This document shows positions 2,117-32,116 of a stretch of 64,000 bases of DNA, one piece after another (position 1 is the first letter of the stretch; every line of letters starts with the position of its first letter). Below the pieces are notes generated by a model. It was given only the letters and a program-made list of their open reading frames with translations, had not been told where the DNA came from and did not search any database. The stretch lies in the NCBI RefSeq assembly GCF_058153355.1, contig NZ_CM177019.1; one strand, given 5' to 3'. The translations under genes were made by a program, and so were the position numbers.

Positions 2117-3072
2117 TGAGTAAATCACGCCCGCGCTGGCGCTTAGCAAAGAAGATCCTCACCTGGCTGTTTTTTATCGCAGTGATTGTGTTGCTGGTGA
2201 TCTACGCCAAAAAGGTAGACTGGGAAGAGGTCTGGAAGGTTATCCGCGATTACAATCGCGTTGCGTTGCTCAGTGCGATTGGGCTGGTGGTCGTCAGCTA
2301 TCTGATATATGGCTGCTACGACCTGCTCGCCCGTTTCTACTGCGGTCACAAACTGGCGAAGCGCCAGGTGATGCTGGTGTCGTTTATCTGCTACGCCTTC
2401 AATCTGACGCTCAGTACCTGGGTCGGCGGCATTGGTATGCGCTATCGTTTGTACTCCCGGCTAGGGTTACCGGGCAGCACTATTACGCGGATTTTCTCGC
2501 TCAGTATTACCACCAACTGGCTGGGCTATATTTTGCTGGCCGGGATTATCTTTACCGCAGGCGTGGTGGAGCTGCCGGATCACTGGTATGTCGATCAAAC
2601 TACGCTGCGTATTCTCGGCATTGGCTTACTGCTGATTATCGCGGTTTATTTGTGGTTTTGCGCTTTCGCGAAGCACCGCCATATGACCATCAAAGGGCAA
2701 AAGCTGGTGCTGCCTTCATGGAAATTCGCCCTCGCCCAGATGCTGATTTCCAGCGTTAACTGGATGGTAATGGGAGCGATTATCTGGCTGTTGCTGGGTC
2801 AAAACGTGAACTATTTCTTTGTACTGGGCGTATTACTGGTAAGCAGTATTGCCGGGGTAATTGTGCATATTCCGGCGGGAATTGGTGTACTGGAAGCGGT
2901 GTTTATCGCGCTACTGGCTGGGGAGCATACCTCCAAAGGCACAATTATCGCCGCCCTGCTCGCTTACCGTGTGCTGTATTACTTTATCCCGCTGCTGCTG
3001 GCGCTGATCTGTTACCTGTTGCTGGAAAGCCAGGCGAAGAAGCTACGAGCGAAAAATGAAGCGGTAATGTGA
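2116..3072 (+). CDS. ybhN: Inner membrane protein YbhN (UPF0104 family)
   Basis: 318 aa, multiple hydrophobic segments; start overlaps clsB stop; synteny. Confidence 0.85.
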   Translation: MSKSRPRWRLAKKILTWLFFIAVIVLLVIYAKKVDWEEVWKVIRDYNRVALLSAIGLVVVSYLIYGCYDLLARFYCGHKLAKRQVMLVSFICYAFNLTLSTWVGGIGMRYRLYSRLGLPGSTITRIFSLSITTNWLGYILLAGIIFTAGVVELPDHWYVDQTTLRILGIGLLLIIAVYLWFCAFAKHRHMTIKGQKLVLPSWKFALAQMLISSVNWMVMGAIIWLLLGQNVNYFFVLGVLLVSSIAGVIVHIPAGIGVLEAVFIALLAGEHTSKGTIIAALLAYRVLYYFIPLLLALICYLLLESQAKKLRAKNEAVM

Positions 3073-3075
3073 AGT

Positions 3076-3339
3076 TCAGTTAAGTTCTTTTGGTTTAAGT
3101 TCGGGATGCTGTTTATAGATGGGGTTCATGATATCGATTAACATGCGCCCCATAATTTCCCCGACGGCGGAACGATAAATATTAAGCTCAGATTCATCGC
3201 AAGCTTGCTGAACATATAATACTGACGCATCTAATTGAGCACCAATATTGAGCATTAATGCGCTGATATCTGCTGCCAGAGTCTTATCTTTGAACATTTT
3301 ATAAACCTTTTCAATTTCTAAACATAAAAGATACTGCAT
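3076..3339 (-). CDS. Hypothetical protein, 87 aa (AT-rich; may be the 3' part of a frameshifted gene with 3311..3679)
   Basis: ORF overlapping the end of the 122-aa ORF by 29 nt in another frame. Confidence 0.35.
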   Translation of the reverse strand: MQYLLCLEIEKVYKMFKDKTLAADISALMLNIGAQLDASVLYVQQACDESELNIYRSAVGEIMGRMLIDIMNPIYKQHPELKPKELN

Positions 3340-3725: not shown

Positions 3726-4439
3726 TTAAATATGAAACCGCGTATGCCTTTGCCAGACAAGCGTTATCGCTATTGCTGCAAGAATCCCAAAGAAGCTGAT
3801 AAAATAGTAATAGAGTGTTAATGCACCTGTAACAGCGCAACGAACCGGACTCCACAACTCTTCGCTATGGCATTTTCCTGCCAGTTCAAGGAGCTTATTT
3901 CGTCCATGCGAGATAATGCCTGACCATAAGACAATCATTAAGCAACTTATTACCCAAACAGGCCGTTCACTCATTAATGCGGTATTTACGCTGATCACCA
4001 GAGTCAACCCTGTCAACGTCATCATAATGATGAAACGGTGAGAACCAGGATCAACATTAAATAATAAACCGGCCTGCATACTGATTAAAAACATCGCGCC
4101 CGCAGTGCTGAACACAAGGATAATGGCAGATACAGGAACTAAACTAGCAACGACAATCGCCACCAAAGAGATTAAAAACAGATACATTACGCCTGCGATG
4201 GCGGCATTTATCTTGTTGATATCCTTACTTAAACCATACATACAAAGTAATAATAATCCTATGGCGACATACATTTGCGGTGAATCATATTTTGTTGCCG
4301 TAATTTCGAGATGCTTAGCTCCCCAGGCCAGTCCTGCGGTTGCCACCAAACCGACAGCGGTAATGAGCCATATGCCGTTTAATATCCTGGCCTCGTACTG
4401 AAAATCATTAGTTATGTTTTTTGATGAGTACGATTTCAT
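3726..4439 (-). CDS. ybhM: BAX inhibitor-1/YccA-like inner membrane protein
   Basis: 237 aa, polytopic membrane protein; length matches K-12 YbhM; position between ybhN and ybhL. Confidence 0.7.
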   Translation of the reverse strand: MKSYSSKNITNDFQYEARILNGIWLITAVGLVATAGLAWGAKHLEITATKYDSPQMYVAIGLLLLCMYGLSKDINKINAAIAGVMYLFLISLVAIVVASLVPVSAIILVFSTAGAMFLISMQAGLLFNVDPGSHRFIIMMTLTGLTLVISVNTALMSERPVWVISCLMIVLWSGIISHGRNKLLELAGKCHSEELWSPVRCAVTGALTLYYYFISFFGILAAIAITLVWQRHTRFHI

Positions 4440-4507
4440 TATTTTTATATCCTTAAGTTGAATATCAATATCTATTGCAATTAACGCAAAAAACTCATCA
4501 ATTCACG

Positions 4508-5248
4508 CTACCACACTAAACCATTAATAAAGTCAAGAACCGTTACAGCAAGTCTAAAAAGGACGCTTAGGATACAGAAATAGAGTGTTATTGCCCCTGC
4601 AACAATACAGCGAAGAACACCTGAAAATTCAGAGTTGTCGGCAACACGGATCAAATCTTCCAGTGTTGTTGCTTCACAGGCAGCCGTAACGCCCCAGATA
4701 ACGACAGTCAAAATACTCGCTAACCATACGGAAAAACTGCTGGTAAGAATCAGGTTAACAACAAAAGCAATACTCAAACCACAGAAGATATATAAACATA
4801 ACTGTCTAACTGGTGGGATAGCCCTATTAATACAACAGCAAATCAGCGCCATTGTGGCAAACATCCCTCCCGTAATTCCCATTACCGTCACTATGCTTGA
4901 AAAGGTAAAAAGTCTGGAGAAGAGAAAGCCATTAAGTAGGATTATTAGCAGATAGACCAGACATGCGCCTGATACCTCGAGCCTTTTCAGGGCATCGTTT
5001 AACCAGAAACCAATTATTATCAGCGCAGATAAAGCGAAGACAAACGCGCCTGGAGATTCTAGTGAAGCAACCCAATGCAAGTGCTGAAATATCCAGGCAC
5101 AGCCTGCCGTAGCCCATACTCCAGCAGCTGTTAACCACCAAATGAGGAACAGCATTTTGCTGAGCGAAGCGCTTTTTTGCTGTAATTGAGTAGCAGTGGA
5201 TCGTCTGTTCAAATGCGTTATCTGCCCCTGAAATTGCGTAGTGGACAT
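4508..5248 (-). CDS. BAX inhibitor-1-like membrane protein, additional paralogue
   Basis: 246 aa; same hydrophobic architecture and similar C-terminal region to the adjacent 237-aa protein; lower GC than flanking core genes. Confidence 0.6.
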   Translation of the reverse strand: MSTTQFQGQITHLNRRSTATQLQQKSASLSKMLFLIWWLTAAGVWATAGCAWIFQHLHWVASLESPGAFVFALSALIIIGFWLNDALKRLEVSGACLVYLLIILLNGFLFSRLFTFSSIVTVMGITGGMFATMALICCCINRAIPPVRQLCLYIFCGLSIAFVVNLILTSSFSVWLASILTVVIWGVTAACEATTLEDLIRVADNSEFSGVLRCIVAGAITLYFCILSVLFRLAVTVLDFINGLVW

Positions 5249-24663: not shown

Positions 24664-26406
24664 TTATAAGCCTCCACCTTGTGGGAGACCAGCGTCATTA
24701 CTATGTAGTTGTCGATGGCAGTTGGGATGGAGTAGGACTAAATTGCTCACATCATCGCTACCGCCAAGAGATTTCTTGAGCAAATGATGAACATTCCATC
24801 CTGTATCGCGATTAATCGGTTGCTCACATAAAGGGCAGCGCGATCCTTGCCTTTTCCATATAGCGAGAATCCTTTTCTGCCCCTGTTGGGATTTCTTCCA
24901 TGAGTAGTCCAGCCTTCTTTCGAAGTATGTTTCCCACTCGGGATCATATGGATTTGCCGTTCCCTTTATTTTTATATAGCGATTAATATGGATGTCGCTG
25001 GCCCGGGACAGAACATATTTCCTACCCTCCGGATCGACTCCATAAAATCGACCATGACACATTTTTATTGTCGTGTGGTACTTTCGGAAGATCCATCTCC
25101 GGCCTTTGCCGGGATGTCTCCTTCTGCACCACTGCCAGATTTTGCGCCAGATTTGGTTGTCGACATAGTTAAATGTCTCTGCCGATGCTACATGTTGGTG
25201 ATAGTTTGCCCACCCGGTGATGATTGGATTAAGCAGATTTATTAGCACCCATGCAGGAACCGTTCGGTTACCTTCAATAGTCTCTCTGATCTTGCTAAGA
25301 AATTGTTTAACGTTTTTCTTGGCTGGTCTGATTATGAGTTTTCTACCGAAGCGTCGGACGTGCTGCCCAAGGAAATCAAATCCGTCAGTAATGTGAGTGA
25401 TGACCGTTTTCTCTTCGGATAACGTCAGCCCTCTTTCTGCAAGAAATGATTTCACCAACGGAAGAACATTCTCCTCCAGAAGTTCTTTCGACTTTCCGGA
25501 AATGATGAAATCATCAGCATACCGGACGAAGTGAACCTGATGTTTCCTGAATGTTTTTGAGCGTTTCGGACCAAAGCGATTTTGCAGCAGTCTTTCCAGT
25601 CCATCCAGGGCCATGTTTGCCAGAACTGGAGATATGATTCCTCCCTGGGGTGTACCCGAGAGAGTTTTGCTGAATATGCTTTTTTCGATGATCCCGGCTT
25701 TCAACCAATTACGGAGTATTTGCTTGTCCATAGGAATATTTTCAAGCAGCCACTCGTGGCTAATGTGTTCAAAGCATCCTTTAATATCGCCTTCCAGAAC
25801 CCATTTCGAGGCGTTCCGGGAACTATACATATTACATACCTGTTGAATGGCGTCAGCCGTACATCGCGCTGGTCTGAAACCATAACTGTTGTGATCTGCA
25901 TTAGTTTCCGATACAGGCTCCAATCCCAGCAGATGCAGGGCCTGCATTGCCCTGTCAAGCATGACGGGGATTCCTAATGGTCTTTTCTTGCCATTAGATT
26001 TGGGTATAAAAACTCTTTTTAGCGGTAGGGGCTTGTACCCTTTTCGCCTGAGTTTGAATATCGCTTCCCATTTTGATTCTGGAGTACTCCAGATTTGACC
26101 ATCAACTCCGGGGGTTTTACGCCCGCTATTTTCCGTAACTCGTTTCACCGCCAGTGCTCTGGCGCTGAATGAGCGAACCAGCAATCGTTGCAATCTACCG
26201 ACTGTACGCCATTGCTGGTTACATGCCGCCTTTGCGATTCTTGTCTGTATGGTTTTAACGTGTTGATGGCATTTCTTCCAGTTAATGGAATGCCAACCTT
26301 TTCCGTTGATGACCGCAGTTACATTGTTAGATGTAATTTTCATACATGTCATCCAAAGAAACCTTCGCAGATGTTTCGCAATTAAAGACCAGATGGAAGT
26401 CAGCAC
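24664..26406 (-). CDS. Group II intron-encoded protein: reverse transcriptase / maturase / HNH endonuclease
   Basis: 580 aa; RT motifs incl. YADD (FVRYADDFIISG); maturase X region; C-terminal HNH-like motif (HHLLKKSLGGSDDVSNLVLLHPNCHRQLH). Confidence 0.9.
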   Translation of the reverse strand: MLTSIWSLIAKHLRRFLWMTCMKITSNNVTAVINGKGWHSINWKKCHQHVKTIQTRIAKAACNQQWRTVGRLQRLLVRSFSARALAVKRVTENSGRKTPGVDGQIWSTPESKWEAIFKLRRKGYKPLPLKRVFIPKSNGKKRPLGIPVMLDRAMQALHLLGLEPVSETNADHNSYGFRPARCTADAIQQVCNMYSSRNASKWVLEGDIKGCFEHISHEWLLENIPMDKQILRNWLKAGIIEKSIFSKTLSGTPQGGIISPVLANMALDGLERLLQNRFGPKRSKTFRKHQVHFVRYADDFIISGKSKELLEENVLPLVKSFLAERGLTLSEEKTVITHITDGFDFLGQHVRRFGRKLIIRPAKKNVKQFLSKIRETIEGNRTVPAWVLINLLNPIITGWANYHQHVASAETFNYVDNQIWRKIWQWCRRRHPGKGRRWIFRKYHTTIKMCHGRFYGVDPEGRKYVLSRASDIHINRYIKIKGTANPYDPEWETYFERRLDYSWKKSQQGQKRILAIWKRQGSRCPLCEQPINRDTGWNVHHLLKKSLGGSDDVSNLVLLHPNCHRQLHSNDAGLPQGGGL

Positions 26407-26941
26407 GGTTTCCCGTTAAGGCAAATATTGAACCTCTATCCGCACGATTACAGTCCGGCTTTCGCTTTTTCCATCCTCCTTTACCCGCATTCTCATCAGT
26501 TTGCCTTACGGTGCCCCTGCCACTAGGGCGAGAATTCGGGCTTACCAAGTTCCGACCAACATACAAAGAACGGGTTAGGTTCTGTCTATCCGCCGGGGGA
26601 GTTATTGTCCATGTATTCCCACTACGAACAGGAATAGCCTTACCCCTTACCTTTTGGTGCAAGCCTATCAGCATCTTTGGCTCGTTCTCTGTTACGACGT
26701 TTAACGACAGTTCACTATGTTAACCATACCGCCCAGCCTAGCGCTCTCGCCGCATGATGCTTGTAGCGATCAGGTTTTCTCACGATTAACTGAAGCAATA
26801 TTTGCTAAGCTACATTGTCCCAAGGGCTTCAGACAGAGCCGTTACCAGCTTTGCCTGCCTCAGTAGGCTACAACTAATGGAATAGTTGGTTTTATATAAA
26901 TAATTTATCAAAACAATATGTTGGACGACTTCTTGTCGCAC

Positions 26942-27105
<164 letters not shown>

Positions 27106-27110
27106 GCTTT

Positions 27111-29372
27111 TTACATCTGACGGTTTTTATTGAAGTTAATCAAACTACCCGCCTTGATAATCTCGCGCTCTTCAGCAGTCAGACTTTCCATATAGAGCGT
27201 AATCTCTGTTACCGGCGCATCTTCATGGATCACATAACCTTTAAACGTCGTCCCCGGATTATCCAGCGCCGTTTTAATGCCAGGGATGTAAATGTAATCG
27301 CCCACTTCAAAGTTCGGTGCTTCCGCCATTTGCAGCGGTAACATCCCCCAGTTGATGACGTTAGAACGGTAGCGTTTAGTCGCGTATTCCTCGGCAATAT
27401 TCGCCAGACCGCCAATCACACGCTGGCAGCTCGCCGCCTGCTCACGCGCAGAACCATCGCCTGGTTTCACCGCATAGACCATGCTGCCAATTTCAGTTTG
27501 CAGCGGATCAATATGCTCCTGACCAGCAATCTGCTTAATGCGCGCAAACACCTCTGTCAGCTCGCTGACATTGCCCGCCAGACGCTGATTTTCCAGCTCA
27601 GCAGTCGCTTTACTTCTCCCAACATAACCTGGATCGCGGCGTGACAGGGTAAACTCCGCCAAACCAATCGGATTTGAACGATAAGAAGAGGTTTCACCGG
27701 AAGGAATCAGTTCGTCGGTGGTGGTGACTTCGTCGAGGATCTTCGAGCACACTTTGAGGACGATATTGTCAGTCAGCGCCCCCAATTCCGGCCAGTCTTT
27801 AATGTTCGGTCCGTAAATCAGCGGTTGCTGGGTCGCCCCTTTCACAAAGCCCTGATAAACACGGTTTTTATACGGCGTTACATCGAAGGCGTACTCCGGC
27901 ACGTTGTCCCAGCAATCCAGCTCGCTGGCAGAGGTTAAATAGCCACCGTTTGCCGCAGTCGCAGCGATAGAACGAGCGTCCATCAACGCCACCGCTGACA
28001 TCTGCCCATTGGCTGGCTTAGAGCCTTCGCGGTTCGGAAAGTTACGCGTGGTGTGGCGAATACTCAAACCGTTGTTGATTGGCGTATCGCCCGCGCCAAA
28101 GCATGGGCCGCAGAACGCGGTTCTGATGATTGCACCTGCGCCAATCAAATCTGCTACCACGCCTTTTTTGGCTAAATCCATAAACACCGGCTGTGATGAT
28201 GGATAAACCGCCAGCGAGAAGGTGTCATTGCCACAGGATTGACCGCGCAGCGCATTAGCTGCAGCGATAACGTTTTCATAGTTACCGCCAGAACAGCCCG
28301 CGATAATCCCCTGCTGCACTTTCAGGCGACCATTTTCCACTTTATCCAGCAATGAGAGTTTGGCTTTCCCGTGCGCCACGCGCTCGGACTCAATTTCAAT
28401 CTCACGCAGAATGTCAGTCAGGTTCTGGTTCAGCATGTCGATTTCATACACGTTGCTCGGGTGGAACGGCAGCGCAATCATTGGTTTGATGGCACTCAAA
28501 TCAACGCTGATGCAGCCATCGTAGTACGCCATCGGTTGAGGGTTAAGCTGACAATAATCCTGGCCGCGACCGTGCAGCGCCAGCCAGTTATGGACTTCTT
28601 CATCAGTTTGCCAGACAGAACTTAAACAGGTAGTTTCAGTGGTCATCACGTCAACGCTGTTACGGAAATCGGTAGAGAGCGCTGCAACACCGGGCCCCAC
28701 GAATTCCATCACTTTGTTTTTGACGTAGCCGTTTTTGAACACGGCACCAATGATAGCCAGCGCCACATCCTGCGGCCCCACATACGGCGCAGGTTTTCCG
28801 GTTAGATGCACCGCGACCACGCCCGGATAATCGATATCCCAGGTATCATTAAGCAGTTGTTTTACCAGCTCGCCGCCGCCCTCGCCGACAGCCATCGTAC
28901 CTAACGCACCGTAACGGGTGTGGCTGTCTGACCCGAGGATCATTTTGCCGCCGCCTGCCATCATCTCACGCATATATTGATGGATGACCGCAATATGCGG
29001 AGGCACAAAAATACCGCCATAACGCTGCGCTGCCGATAAACCAAAAACATGGTCATCACCGTTAATGGTGCCGCCGACGGCGCAGAGTGAGTTATGGCAG
29101 TTGGTCAGCACATACGGCAGCGGGAAACGTTCCATACCGGACGCTTTAGCGGTCTGTACAATACCAACAAAGGTAATATCGTGAGAGGCTAATGAATCAA
29201 ACTTAATTTTAAGTTTATCCATATTTCCGGACGTATTATGAGAAGAGAGAATAGACCAGGCAATAGTGCCTTTTTTTGCTTCTTCTTTTTTAATTTCGCC
29301 GGTGAAATGTTCTTCGGCAATTATTTCGTTATTACTGGCGAGAAACACGCCTTTTTCAGATAACTTGATCAT
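27111..29372 (-). CDS. ybhJ: Aconitase-family hydratase
   Basis: ~753 aa from MIKLSEKGV...; ORF-track 761 aa includes an upstream extension; synteny. Confidence 0.85.
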
Positions 29373-29439
29373 CAAATGCTCCAGATATCTGCGCACCGTT
29401 AAGTGCGCAGAAAGATAATAAATGGATATACTCTAAATA

Positions 29440-29545
29440 ATTCGAGTTGCAGGAAGGCGGCAAGCGAGTGAATCCCCAGGAGCTTACATAAGTAAGTGAC
29501 TGGGGTGAGCGAACGCAGATGCAGCACATGCAACTTGAAGTATGA
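29440..29545. repeat. ERIC (IRU) enterobacterial repetitive intergenic element
   Basis: Contains gtgaatccccaggagcttacat and aagtaagtgactggggtgagcg, the sequences used as ERIC primers. Confidence 0.65.
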
Positions 29546-29554
29546 CGAGTATAT

Positions 29555-30988
29555 TTACAGCATGTTCCAGCCGATCAGCATATTCCACCACCACACGCCG
29601 AGGGTGATATGTACCAGGAAGGTTAATATCGTCAGTACCGCACCGACCAACCACCAGGATTTAATATCGTTATAGCCTACGCCGAAGATGACCGGACCTG
29701 CCGCACCGCCATAGTGAGTAACCATGCCGCCATAGGAGTTGGAGAAAAGCAGCGCCAGCGCAGTTAACATTAACGGTGCGCCGGAGACGTTCGCCAGCAT
29801 GGCAAATACCGGTAACATGGCAACGATATAGGCACTACCGGAAGCAAAGAAATAACGCACGATGATGCTAAGGAAAATAATAACGAAGAAAGCTACGTTA
29901 CCATGGCCGTCAAATGCCAGGTTATTTTTAAAGACTTCAGCTAACCATTCGAAGAATTTAACTTTCGATAATAAGGAGCTTAAGCCGATAATACCGCCGT
30001 ACCAGATTAAGGTATTCCAGCCGCCTTTATTTTTCACCACGTCTTCCCAGGTAACGATCCCCAGCAGCAGCATGGTCGCCATAACAACGATTGCCACAGT
30101 GGATTCATCTACCCCGAGCGTTTTACTGAAAATCCAGCCCAACAGCGCCAGCACAAAGACACCGAGCAGCATTTTTTCGCGGATTTTCATCGGCCCCAGT
30201 TCAGCAAGGCCCGCTTTGGCGATGGTTTTGTTATCCACTTTCTTAATTTCTGGCGGATACATGGTGTAAATCACCAGCGGAGTGACCAGCAGCATAATGA
30301 TGCCCGGCAATCCAGCAGCCAGCGCCCATCCACCCCAACTAATTTGTAGGTGCAGAATATCATTGATCATTTTCAGCGCCAGAATGTTCCCCGCCATTGC
30401 GGTAAAGAACATATAGCTGGTGGTTTTAGTGACCATGTAAATGGACATCATCAGGTAATGTCCAACACGACGTGGGCTTTTTTCAGGTTCTGACCCCAAA
30501 GCCACCGCCACGCTGTTGATGATCGGTAACACAATGCCGCCCGCACGCGCGGTGTTAGACGGTGTTGCCGGAGCCAGAACCAGATCGAGGAATACCGTAA
30601 CGTAACCCAGTCCCAGGGTAGTGCTACCAATTTTGCCAATCAATAAATAGGCAATACGTTTACCTAACCCTGTGGTCACAAATGCGGCGCTTAAGGTAAA
30701 CGCCGAGAACACCAGCCAGGTGGTACCTGAAGAGTAACCGCTTAATACGGCGGTGGTCTTAAATGCACCATCGGATAAATTACCGACCACCACCATTGAG
30801 GCAGCAACGGCAATTAACAGTACGACAGGTTCCGGGAAAGGCTTGATAACCAGCCCGACGATTGCTGCCAGGTAAATACCAAAAAGCACCCACGCCAGTT
30901 CGCTTAATCCTGCCGGAGCTGGCATAAAGCCAATAATACATGGGATCGCTAATATCAGAATTAGCTTCCATAACGATTTTTTATTCAT
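29555..30988 (-). CDS. ybhI: DASS-family anion transporter
   Basis: 477 aa polytopic membrane protein; synteny. Confidence 0.85.
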   Translation of the reverse strand: MNKKSLWKLILILAIPCIIGFMPAPAGLSELAWVLFGIYLAAIVGLVIKPFPEPVVLLIAVAASMVVVGNLSDGAFKTTAVLSGYSSGTTWLVFSAFTLSAAFVTTGLGKRIAYLLIGKIGSTTLGLGYVTVFLDLVLAPATPSNTARAGGIVLPIINSVAVALGSEPEKSPRRVGHYLMMSIYMVTKTTSYMFFTAMAGNILALKMINDILHLQISWGGWALAAGLPGIIMLLVTPLVIYTMYPPEIKKVDNKTIAKAGLAELGPMKIREKMLLGVFVLALLGWIFSKTLGVDESTVAIVVMATMLLLGIVTWEDVVKNKGGWNTLIWYGGIIGLSSLLSKVKFFEWLAEVFKNNLAFDGHGNVAFFVIIFLSIIVRYFFASGSAYIVAMLPVFAMLANVSGAPLMLTALALLFSNSYGGMVTHYGGAAGPVIFGVGYNDIKSWWLVGAVLTILTFLVHITLGVWWWNMLIGWNML

Positions 30989-31063: not shown

Positions 31064-32116
31064 TCAGGGAAGATAAACTTCACCGGAAAATATTTTTCTG
31101 GTTGTCCGAATAACAGATGCGCGTAACGTCGTGGCATCCTGACCTTCATTACTTAAATGAACGTCGAGTGCACCACTGGGGTGTTCAATATTGATATTGC
31201 CGTATCCTACAGAAGGGACGATTTGTCGGGTGACGGTGCCTTCCAATGCACAACTACTGGAAATAGCAATAGCACCGGTTATCGCCAGCGCGCGATGGCA
31301 AGAATGCGGCATAAAATAACGCACATTAATTGCCCCGCCTTTCTGCGCAGGAGAAATAAGCACAGGTTTAGGGATAACCATATTACTGACATCACCTAAG
31401 CCCATTGCTTTACCCGCTTGTAGGCGGATAGATTCAATGCGGGCTAATAATGTTTTGTCGGCATCCAGTTCCGCCGGTAATTCATAGCCTGTTTTACCAA
31501 AATAATCAGCCGGAATAATGACGACTGGCATCGCCATATCGATACAAGTCACTGGAACATCGTCAAAATAATCAATCTGATTATCAGTCGGGAAGACTTT
31601 TCCGGTTTTTGTTCCGGCGGCATTCAGGAAAGTGAGCGCAACGGGTGCGGCAGTACCCGGTACACCGTCAATCCTGGCACTACCTTCATATTCGACAACA
31701 CCATTTGGCGTTTGCACATCAGCTTCGATGAACGTACCTGTATTGACGTTGCGGATACGTACGCGGGTAACTGGCGAAGTCGCTGCAATCAAACCATTTT
31801 CAATGGCGAATGCCCCAACGCCAGACAGCATATTGCCGCAGTTAGGTGTAGTGTCGACACGTTGCTCATGGACGATAACCTGAGCAAACAGATAATCGAC
31901 GTCAGCACGCGGATCGCTGGAACGGCTAATTATGGCGACTTTACTGGTCAGTGGATTACCGCCGCCAATACCGTCAATTTCCAGATCGTTACCGGAACCC
32001 ATAATTGCCATCAATATTTTATCGCGCTGCGTTTGATCTTCGGGTAGATGTTCCGCTAACAGGAACGCGCCCCTCGAGGTTCCACCTCGCATCATCACGC
32101 AGGGTATTTTTTTCAT
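31064..32116 (-). CDS. ybhH: PrpF/AcnD-accessory-like isomerase family protein
   Basis: 350 aa; synteny. Confidence 0.8.
   Translation of the reverse strand: MKKIPCVMMRGGTSRGAFLLAEHLPEDQTQRDKILMAIMGSGNDLEIDGIGGGNPLTSKVAIISRSSDPRADVDYLFAQVIVHEQRVDTTPNCGNMLSGVGAFAIENGLIAATSPVTRVRIRNVNTGTFIEADVQTPNGVVEYEGSARIDGVPGTAAPVALTFLNAAGTKTGKVFPTDNQIDYFDDVPVTCIDMAMPVVIIPADYFGKTGYELPAELDADKTLLARIESIRLQAGKAMGLGDVSNMVIPKPVLISPAQKGGAINVRYFMPHSCHRALAITGAIAISSSCALEGTVTRQIVPSVGYGNINIEHPSGALDVHLSNEGQDATTLRASVIRTTRKIFSGEVYLP

Follow-up and report, generated by a model that had tools for sequence, protein, structure and literature searches.

In the 64,000-nt stretch of DNA analysed here (the window), three genes are carried in the same orientation on the minus strand, namely ybhH (31064-32116; PrpF family), ybhI (29555..30988; a DASS-family anion/tricarboxylate permease, with its TAA stop codon at 29555-29557), and ybhJ (27111..29372; a 753-aa hydratase of the aconitase family that starts with an ATG at 29370-29372), which are assigned from the K-12 annotation and the Pfam families PrpF, Na_sulph_symp, and Aconitase, respectively; the gene ybhD is located divergently, upstream of the ybhHIJ genes. 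A GTG at 29396, given in the list of open reading frames as the start of ybhJ, lies inside a hairpin and is rejected in favor of the ATG used in the K-12 annotation. Likewise, an apparent divergence of ~10% between ybhJ and its K-12 counterpart is dismissed as an artefact of non-homologous sequence downstream of ybhJ, where an inserted group II intron is the source of the false value. A cis-antisense sRNA has been reported in the coding region of ybhJ and is distinct from the element considered below.

The spacer between ybhI and ybhJ is 182 nt long and can be divided into 127 nt of ERIC sequence and ~55 nt of older spacer that contains a hairpin and the ribosome-binding site of ybhJ (GGAG, 29379..29382, minus strand). 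This hairpin, a perfect 9-bp inverted repeat (10 bp when folded) of the form TCTGCGCAC-N6-GTGCGCAGA at 29388..29411 on the minus strand, is located outside the ERIC, 16 nt past its 3′ end and before the ribosome-binding site. The stem is identical in all Escherichia loci examined, including those that lack the ERIC, with a loop that varies at one position, and a hairpin of different sequence is found at a similar position, from a few to ~13 nt upstream of GGAG, in several Citrobacter species and Edwardsiella hoshinae; the 29388-29411 hairpin is older than the ERIC insertion. A consensus scan of the minus strand between 29372 and 29555 finds no sigma-70-like or terminator-like site, and no promoter-like or terminator-like site flanks the ERIC on the plus strand either. 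An intrinsic terminator is rejected for the transcribed strand, on which the combination of GC-rich stem and U-tract does not occur, a T-run being absent after both the ERIC and the 29388-29411 hairpin. Because the genes are co-oriented and no recognizable promoter or terminator separates them, co-transcription is plausible, and the ERIC is plausibly transcribed within a ybh(H)I-ybhJ mRNA.

Judged by its sequence, the element itself is a complete ERIC/IRU of 127 bp at 29427..29553, a member of the family and not a mere look-alike, as indicated by an exact core, nine independent copies elsewhere, and an empty site at two loci (L003 and L061); its identity and origin are regarded as practically certain. 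Elements of this type, known as ERIC, IRU, or RU-1 of Enterobacteriaceae, are reportedly described by Sharples & Lloyd in 1990, Hulton et al. in 1991, and Wilson & Sharp in 2006. The 44-nt core GTGAATCCCCAGGAGCTTACATAAGTAAGTGACTGGGGTGAGCG at 29468..29511 on the plus strand is identical at 44/44 positions, with 0 mismatches, to the ERIC consensus core, in which the complement of ERIC1R is joined to the ERIC2 primer site. When this core is cross-checked, it is common to nine independent copies with scattered substitutions alone; moreover, a core within 3 mismatches is obtained in 0/100 dinucleotide shuffles, and no second copy of the core is found within the 64-kb window. The usual consensus orientation, from ERIC1R to ERIC2, runs on the plus strand, and the ybhI-ybhJ mRNA carries its reverse complement.

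Around this core, the outer arms of the inverted repeat (29426-29451 and 29529-29554) extend over 26 nt with 81% complementarity, and a central pair of 14 nt (29474-29487 and 29492-29505) forms the central ERIC hairpin, CCCCAG..CTTAC / GTAAG..CTGGGG (29474..29505), which is identified from the inverted repeat and from compensatory changes among copies. The left terminal inverted repeat (29427..29451) becomes the AU-rich 3′ arm in the mRNA, and the right terminal inverted repeat (29529..29553) becomes the 5′ arm, which begins 1 nt past the ybhI stop codon, as the element ends at 29553 and the TAA occupies 29555-29557. The termini read TATACTC...GAGTATA, and the TA at the left end (29427..29428) and the TA at the right end (29552..29553) are presumed to be the two copies of a target-site duplication from the comparison of empty and filled alleles. 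In mRNA sense, the junctions are ...CUG UAA A UAUACUCGUCAUACUUCAAGUUGCA...UGCAACUCGAAUUAUUUAGAGUAUA UCC..., and the sequence of window 29420-29560 is aaatggATATACTCTAAATAATTCGAGTTGCAGGAAGGCGGCAAGCGAGTGAATCCCCAGGAGCTTACATAAGTAAGTGACTGGGGTGAGCGAACGCAGATGCAGCACATGCAACTTGAAGTATGACGAGTATATttacag. All testable hallmarks of an ERIC are therefore present, comprising the core, the length, the inverted repeats, the TA ends, the copy number, and the intergenic site. The original prediction, in which a canonical ERIC/IRU repeat was placed between ybhI and ybhJ and alignment to the ERIC consensus was proposed as the means of refuting it, is upheld by the exact core match, the full length, and the position inside the spacer; only the extent has to be corrected, for the predicted interval of 29440-29545 lies within the true element but falls short of its left end by 13 nt and of its right end by 8 nt.

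The exact boundaries of 29427-29553 follow from alignment with independent copies, which limits the shared sequence to this interval. A blastn search of a plasmid collection with window 29420-29560 as the query returns 351 records with an ERIC, mainly from Salmonella, Escherichia, Klebsiella, and Citrobacter, and full-length plasmid copies align from query positions 7-10 through 134-136. Eight plasmid copies were taken for alignment from mutually unrelated contexts, namely cusC-cusF, part of F128, a region without annotation on the small E. coli plasmid pE17EC0383-4, C. braakii pocR, ilvC-ilvY, ptsG with a pgi-family gene, hpaC-btsT, and rraA-zapB. In the resulting 10-sequence alignment, homology is sharply bounded at TATACTC...GAGTATA with unrelated flanks on either side, and the unit is 127 bp long in 8/10 sequences and 125 bp in the other 2/10. 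Full-length copies at other loci (at least 87% of the query covered) are 81-98% identical to the query, for example the cusC-cusF copy (98.4%) and the F128 copy (95.3%). With respect to transcription, the cusC-cusF copy is oriented like the ybhI-ybhJ copy, and it is positioned 5 nt from the cusC stop codon. Two copies that lie at or overlap a stop codon, those of ptsG and C. braakii pocR, are reversed, and therefore orientation at a stop codon follows no strict rule. In general, an E. coli genome contains a median of 13 ERIC-like places (range 3-21), and copies are found in both orientations relative to neighboring genes.

ERICs belong to the textbook repertoire of enterobacterial repeats. The E. 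coli K-12 copies are said to have been catalogued by Wilson & Sharp in 2006, and a full-length, near-consensus copy such as this one would not have been missed there; the K-12 record NC_000913.3 has no repeat feature at the ybhI-ybhJ spacer.

A stable stem-loop was also considered possible in the original prediction, with RNA folding suggested as a check, and folding of 29420-29560 in mRNA sense bears this out computationally, with a predicted energy of -45.3 kcal/mol against a shuffle mean of -24.9 (z -6.07). The antisense (plus-strand) sequence is predicted to fold even more stably, at -59.4 kcal/mol (z -9.44), and the two strands differ in fold energy because G-U pairs in one correspond to C-A mismatches in the other. 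Analysis of nine independent copies with RNAalifold gives 30 consensus pairs, of which 13 show compensatory changes on both sides, for example in the apical stem, where CTTAC/GTAAG alternates with CATAG/CTATG; these changes imply that the hairpin or, equally, the inverted-repeat architecture is conserved across the ERIC family. Searches against Rfam return two plus-strand resemblances, RF02818 V_AS5 (Vibrio antisense RNA 5; 29426-29549, 47.4 bits, E 6.4e-9) and RF01391 isrH (17.5 bits, with the outer arms alone aligned around an 80-nt insertion), and membership is rejected for both families, as the scores fall below the gathering thresholds of 96 and 45, respectively. The better fold of the plus strand and these sub-threshold matches are the points in favor of an independent small or antisense RNA gene on the plus strand, antisense to the operon. 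However, the resemblance to V_AS5 and isrH is due to ERIC-derived sequence inside those families, which explains scores so far under the gathering values, each genome holds the same sequence at a median of 13 places, facing either way relative to the neighboring genes, and the plus strand has no flanking promoter-like or terminator-like site in the scan described above; such a gene is considered highly improbable.

With respect to its distribution, the ybhI-ybhJ copy is essentially fixed in E. coli. A query of 801 bp is matched in 5425/5426 complete E. coli genomes (annotated as ‘ybhI: anion permease’ and ‘ybhJ: hydratase’), and this count is uninformative on ERIC presence, since the element makes up just 16% of the query. 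A shorter query of 231 bp, in which the ERIC accounts for 55% of the length, is covered to at least 80% in 5331/5426 complete genomes, and the flanks alone, searched with a query built from the ERIC-less junction of L003, are found in 5345; the ERIC together with both flanks is thereby present in 5331/5345 locus-bearing complete genomes (at least 99.7%). With the empty-junction query, the best 60 matches are all split into two pieces that span 324 bp, i.e., the filled state, so that no empty site is found in E. coli among the best 60 of 5345 matches, with an upper bound of 14/5345. The comparison of strains suggested in the original prediction, which expected ERIC presence to be variable, thus has a divided outcome, as the site is not variable within E. 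coli but does vary across the genus and within one divergent Escherichia lineage.

That variation is informative on the age of the insertion. In a YbhI-based scan with one genome per species (50 loci), the ERIC occupies exactly the same position in E. coli E69 (L002), E. albertii (L005), and E. whittamii (L018), and is absent at all Citrobacter, Intestinirhabdus, Edwardsiella, and Klebsiella loci of the scan; the spacers outside Escherichia in which ybhJ follows ybhI measure 26-197 nt. Two Escherichia loci lack the full element. L003, labelled E. coli SCPM-O-B-8794, differs from K-12 by about 6-8% at this locus; its site is cleanly empty, with CTGTAAATAT joined directly to CCCTTCATT. L004 (Escherichia sp. 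MOD1-EC7003) carries CTGTAATTATTTAAAAATATCCATT, apparently the final ~15 nt of the ERIC that an internal deletion left in place. A second set, consisting of genomes whose YbhI protein is identical to that of L003, contains five empty loci (L061, from GCA_013817505.1, and L065-L068) and three with the ERIC (L062, from GCA_020487605.1, to L064), which are 0.7-1.7% apart over 4.3 kb, with the filled haplotype nested in the diversity of the empty ones. Aligned with one another, the empty allele reads GGATAT/TTACAG and the filled allele GGATAT[ACTC...GAGTATAT]TTACAG; on the opposite strand, the empty allele reads ...TAAATAT/CC..., and in the filled allele the element is placed between two ATAT motifs, a sequence compatible with a target-site duplication of either TA or ATAT. 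As read from these alleles, the insertion target is the TA directly 3′ of the ybhI stop codon.

Two derived bases beside the site are common to all empty alleles, which read CCCTTC where all other Escherichia loci, including the L004 remnant, read CCATTT, and because of these shared substitutions the empty state is explained as a secondary deletion. It is concluded that the insertion occurred in an Escherichia ancestor, earlier than the split of E. albertii and E. coli, and that the ERIC-less states represent two later deletions in divergent Escherichia lineages, one of which would have left a single ATAT behind and later been distributed through its lineage by recombination; a less likely alternative is that recombination brought in the filled allele. 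As two lineages have lost the ERIC without visible disruption of the operon, the element is evidently dispensable. The same alleles bear on a role at the DNA level, in which the element would serve as a protein-binding site, a cruciform, or a substrate for recombination or a transposase. Terminal inverted repeats with TA ends are typical of transposase substrates, the empty allele occurs in a clean form, and the compensatory changes would fit a constraint on a DNA cruciform or inverted repeat equally well. Nevertheless, one site has been kept since before the split of E. albertii and E. coli and is fixed in the latter, the empty allele with its two extra substitutions resembles a single old deletion spread by recombination instead of recurrent excision, and no cognate transposase is known for ERIC; a DNA-level role is hence very improbable.

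Sequence conservation was considered as a further indication of function. In comparison with E. albertii, the ERIC differs at 0 (E69), 1 (K-12), or 2 (window) of its 127 nt, against 161/1431 sites (~11%) in ybhI (Fisher p 1.1e-4 for ybhI versus the ERIC in the window pair). Flanks of ~150 nt, comprising the last 66 nt of ybhI, the remaining spacer, and the first ybhJ codons, are also unusually conserved, and the ERIC differs from these immediate flanks with Fisher p values between 0.009 and 0.66, depending on the species pair, which is marginal. An initial case for clear purifying selection is therefore downgraded, and the data are regarded as merely suggestive of constraint on the ybhI-ybhJ ERIC; the low divergence may instead stem from conservation of the whole region, from recombination, or from gene conversion between near-identical copies.

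These data also accommodate a neutral relic, i.e., an old insertion that has become fixed, no longer moves, and has no effect on ybhHIJ expression of consequence to the cell, the sequence of which is kept up by gene conversion with other copies or belongs to a spacer of low divergence by chance. Two losses in Escherichia that spare the genes on either side as well as the hairpin and ribosome-binding site, the coexistence of both states in one lineage among strains 0.7-1.7% apart, and the lack of significantly better conservation of the ERIC over its flanks in several species pairs are all consistent with this explanation, and the identity of 95-98% between this ERIC and copies at unrelated loci fits concerted evolution. 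It is less easily reconciled with the presence of the ERIC in 99.7% of locus-bearing E. coli genomes, with the complete identity of all 127 nt in E. albertii and E69 despite a divergence of ~11% in ybhI, with the family-wide compensatory changes that argue for a constraint on the hairpin, and with the experimental effects of Yersinia ERICs described in reviews (PMC2229807, PMC3184786, PMC10969869). On balance, a neutral relic is a serious contender that nonetheless falls somewhat short of an even chance.

An effect on the mRNA is suggested by the ERICs of Yersinia. De Gregorio et al. reportedly found in 2005 that ERICs beside stop codons are the ones affected, since translating ribosomes hinder their folding. 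In Yersinia, ERICs co-transcribed at the 3′ ends of genes lower the level of the upstream transcript, by an orientation-dependent mechanism in which an RNase E site is exposed in the 3′ inverted repeat (PMC2229807, PMC3184786, PMC10969869). By analogy, the ERIC in a ybh(H)I-ybhJ transcript would fold as a long imperfect hairpin, and a ribosome that terminates at the ybhI UAA would sit on the initial ~12 nt of its 5′ arm, thereby keeping the basal helices open and leaving the AU-rich 3′ arm (GAAUUAUUUAGAG) more single-stranded. In the fold model, the 3′ arm is unpaired with a mean probability of 0.28, which increases modestly to 0.47 when the ribosome footprint is constrained to be unpaired, and the arm contains a GAAUU (from 29443) that matches the RNase E motif RN/WUU, for which the chance expectation is ~1 per 64 nt. 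The exposed arm might then permit a cut by RNase E between the ybhI and ybhJ cistrons, after which the upstream ybhHI and downstream ybhJ segments could differ in stability, with the conserved hairpin at 29388-29411 kept close to the 5′ end that the cut would create on the ybhJ segment. We infer that translation-coupled RNase E processing, or an altered stability of mRNA segments, would be the most likely effect of the element, in line with the influence on mRNA processing or differential expression raised by the original prediction; the RNase E and differential-stability step is itself possible but doubtful. Transcript, cleavage-site, or half-life data for ybhI-ybhJ are not found in the literature searched.

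Alternatively, the hairpin could stabilize the upstream mRNA by blocking 3′-to-5′ exonucleases, or act as a partial barrier that slows or terminates some polymerases, so that ybhHI mRNA would exceed ybhJ mRNA in the manner of the malE-malF REP. ERICs in the other orientation were reportedly proposed by De Gregorio in 2005 as stabilizers of upstream RNA, and a hairpin of very high predicted stability stands directly past ybhI. Moreover, ybhH is strongly up-regulated in a ybhD deletion mutant, and ybhH and ybhI are named as YbhD targets with ybhJ as just a neighbor (PMC9068703), which is compatible with such an arrangement; however, expression values of ybhJ relative to ybhH or ybhI are not found in that study or its supplements (PMC9068703). 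A stabilizer or barrier is further disfavored by the missing U-tract or terminator-like site after the hairpin, by the mRNA sense being the weaker fold (-45.3 versus -59.4 kcal/mol), and by the terminating ribosome, which would overlap the 5′ arm, and this explanation is rated as rather improbable.

Taken as a whole, the best explanation is that an ERIC inserted at a TA 3′ of the ybhI stop codon, became near-fixed in E. coli, and is probably transcribed, with a possible RNase E or differential-stability consequence; a probability of roughly 0.8 is assigned to this reading, in which the last step is far less sure than the others. That the element is selectively maintained and sets the ybhHI : ybhJ ratio through translation-coupled RNase E cleavage is a bolder proposition, and an unlikely one. 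If true, it would account for the 0-2 substitutions by which E. albertii and E. coli differ over the 127 nt, for the retention in 99.7% of locus-bearing E. coli genomes, and for the two substitutions that accompany the clean loss, in a spacer that is otherwise invariant beside the conserved hairpin, and the natural ERIC-plus and ERIC-minus strains would provide a ready test of ERIC action in vivo. On its own, a textbook repeat in the best-studied bacterial genome is of little importance. For typing, the ybhI-ybhJ ERIC adds an invariant site, not a variable one, to ERIC-PCR patterns, and for annotation, the spacer, which carries no repeat feature in the K-12 reference, is resolved into the 127 nt of the ERIC and the ~55 nt of its older part. 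The close ERIC-plus and ERIC-minus relatives in one divergent lineage offer a natural comparison for the effect of a stop-abutting ERIC on operon expression, which has so far been settled at just a few Yersinia loci.

Compared with known systems, the element shares with the ERIC/IRU family its length of 127 bp, the consensus core, the imperfect terminal inverted repeats, the TA ends, the multi-copy occurrence, and an intergenic position in a probable transcription unit; it is set apart by being fixed in E. coli, by abutting the ybhI stop codon, and by its loss in two sister lineages, and otherwise differs in nothing of substance. The stop-adjacent ERICs of Yersinia are the nearest functional counterpart, with the same family, co-oriented flanking genes, a start 1 nt past the stop codon, and the AU-rich arm located 3′ in the mRNA; what sets them apart is that RNase E cleavage, chloramphenicol sensitivity, and a lower level of upstream transcript are measured properties of the Yersinia elements (PMC2229807, PMC3184786, PMC10969869). 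The Correia/NEMIS elements of Neisseria are likewise miniature inverted-repeat elements with a TA duplication and long hairpins, and Correia elements are co-transcribed and processed by a ribonuclease; however, they have no sequence relationship to ERICs, their near-perfect repeats are the target of RNase III, and promoters or IHF sites are present in some of them, whereas the stem of the ybhI-ybhJ ERIC is broken by many mismatches and is thus a poorer RNase III substrate. REP/BIME sequences, such as that of malE-malF, are also repeated palindromes between the cistrons of an operon and can determine how stable one mRNA segment is relative to another, but REPs are ~35 bp long, GC-rich, unrelated in sequence, and mainly a barrier to 3′ exonucleases, whereas the ybhI-ybhJ ERIC exceeds them fourfold in length and ends like a transposon.

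The ERIC element, a 127-bp repeat at 29427-29553 in the spacer between ybhI (29555-30988, minus strand) and ybhJ (27111-29372, minus strand), occupies a site that is polymorphic within one divergent Escherichia lineage. Among eight loci of this lineage that encode exactly the same YbhI protein (L061-L068), the site at about 2934-3117 of each locus is empty in L061 and L065-L068 and filled in L062-L064, and the strains are 0.7-1.7% apart; two derived substitutions adjoining the site are common to the empty alleles. In the Escherichia sp. MOD1-EC7003 locus (L004, about 4432-4450) and two further loci (L069 and L070), TAATTATTTAAAAATATCC directly follows the ybhI stop codon and, judged from its sequence, looks like a 3' ERIC remnant of approximately 15 nt after an internal deletion, which would constitute a second, independent loss of the element. 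The copy in the E. whittamii locus (L018, about 4478-4521) carries GTGAC in place of the central GCTCC. This change makes the apical part perfectly palindromic, CCCCAGTCACTTAC-TTAT-GTAAGTGACTGGGG, and gives the impression that one arm served as the template for the other.

On the minus strand, 6 nt upstream of the GGAG ribosome-binding site of ybhJ, a hairpin with a perfect 9-bp stem, TCTGCGCAC-N6-GTGCGCAGA, occupies 29388-29411. The same stem is found in all Escherichia loci examined, including those that lack ERIC, with the loop differing at one position. In Edwardsiella and several species of Citrobacter, a hairpin that differs in sequence occupies a similar place and precedes the GGAG by between a few and about 13 nt. 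The hairpin is therefore structurally conserved and predates the ERIC insertion, and it may stabilise the ybhJ mRNA or serve as a processing signal. Opposite the beginning of the ybhJ coding strand, the plus strand has a hairpin resembling a terminator at 29258-29271, with TTTTTTGC after it. For K-12, a deep-sequencing study reports a cis-antisense sRNA of 66 nt, ECS012, directed against the coding region of ybhJ (PMC3175480).

The allele of the window at 29100-30988 is uncommon: among the 5447 E. coli records that match, only 35 reach at least 99% identity over 29100-29900. Its ybhI differs from that of K-12 at 68 of 1431 sites (4.8%). Downstream of ybhJ, at the place that corresponds to the ybhJ-ybhC spacer of K-12, the window has group II intron sequence within 24664-26988. 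Its ORF (24664-26406, minus strand) encodes a reverse transcriptase/maturase that also contains an HNH domain (Pfam RVT_N, RVT_1, GIIM, and HNH). Homology to K-12 ends near 26988; the left part of the junction at 26300-27200 matches plasmid-borne ltrA introns at 96%, and none of 5426 complete E. coli genomes covers this junction to at least 80%.

With respect to known RNA families, the ERIC interval (29426-29549, plus strand) gives sub-threshold Rfam matches to V_AS5 of Vibrio and isrH of Salmonella, the latter aligning with the outer arms alone and with an 80-nt insertion; these matches imply that ERIC-derived sequence is present within both families.
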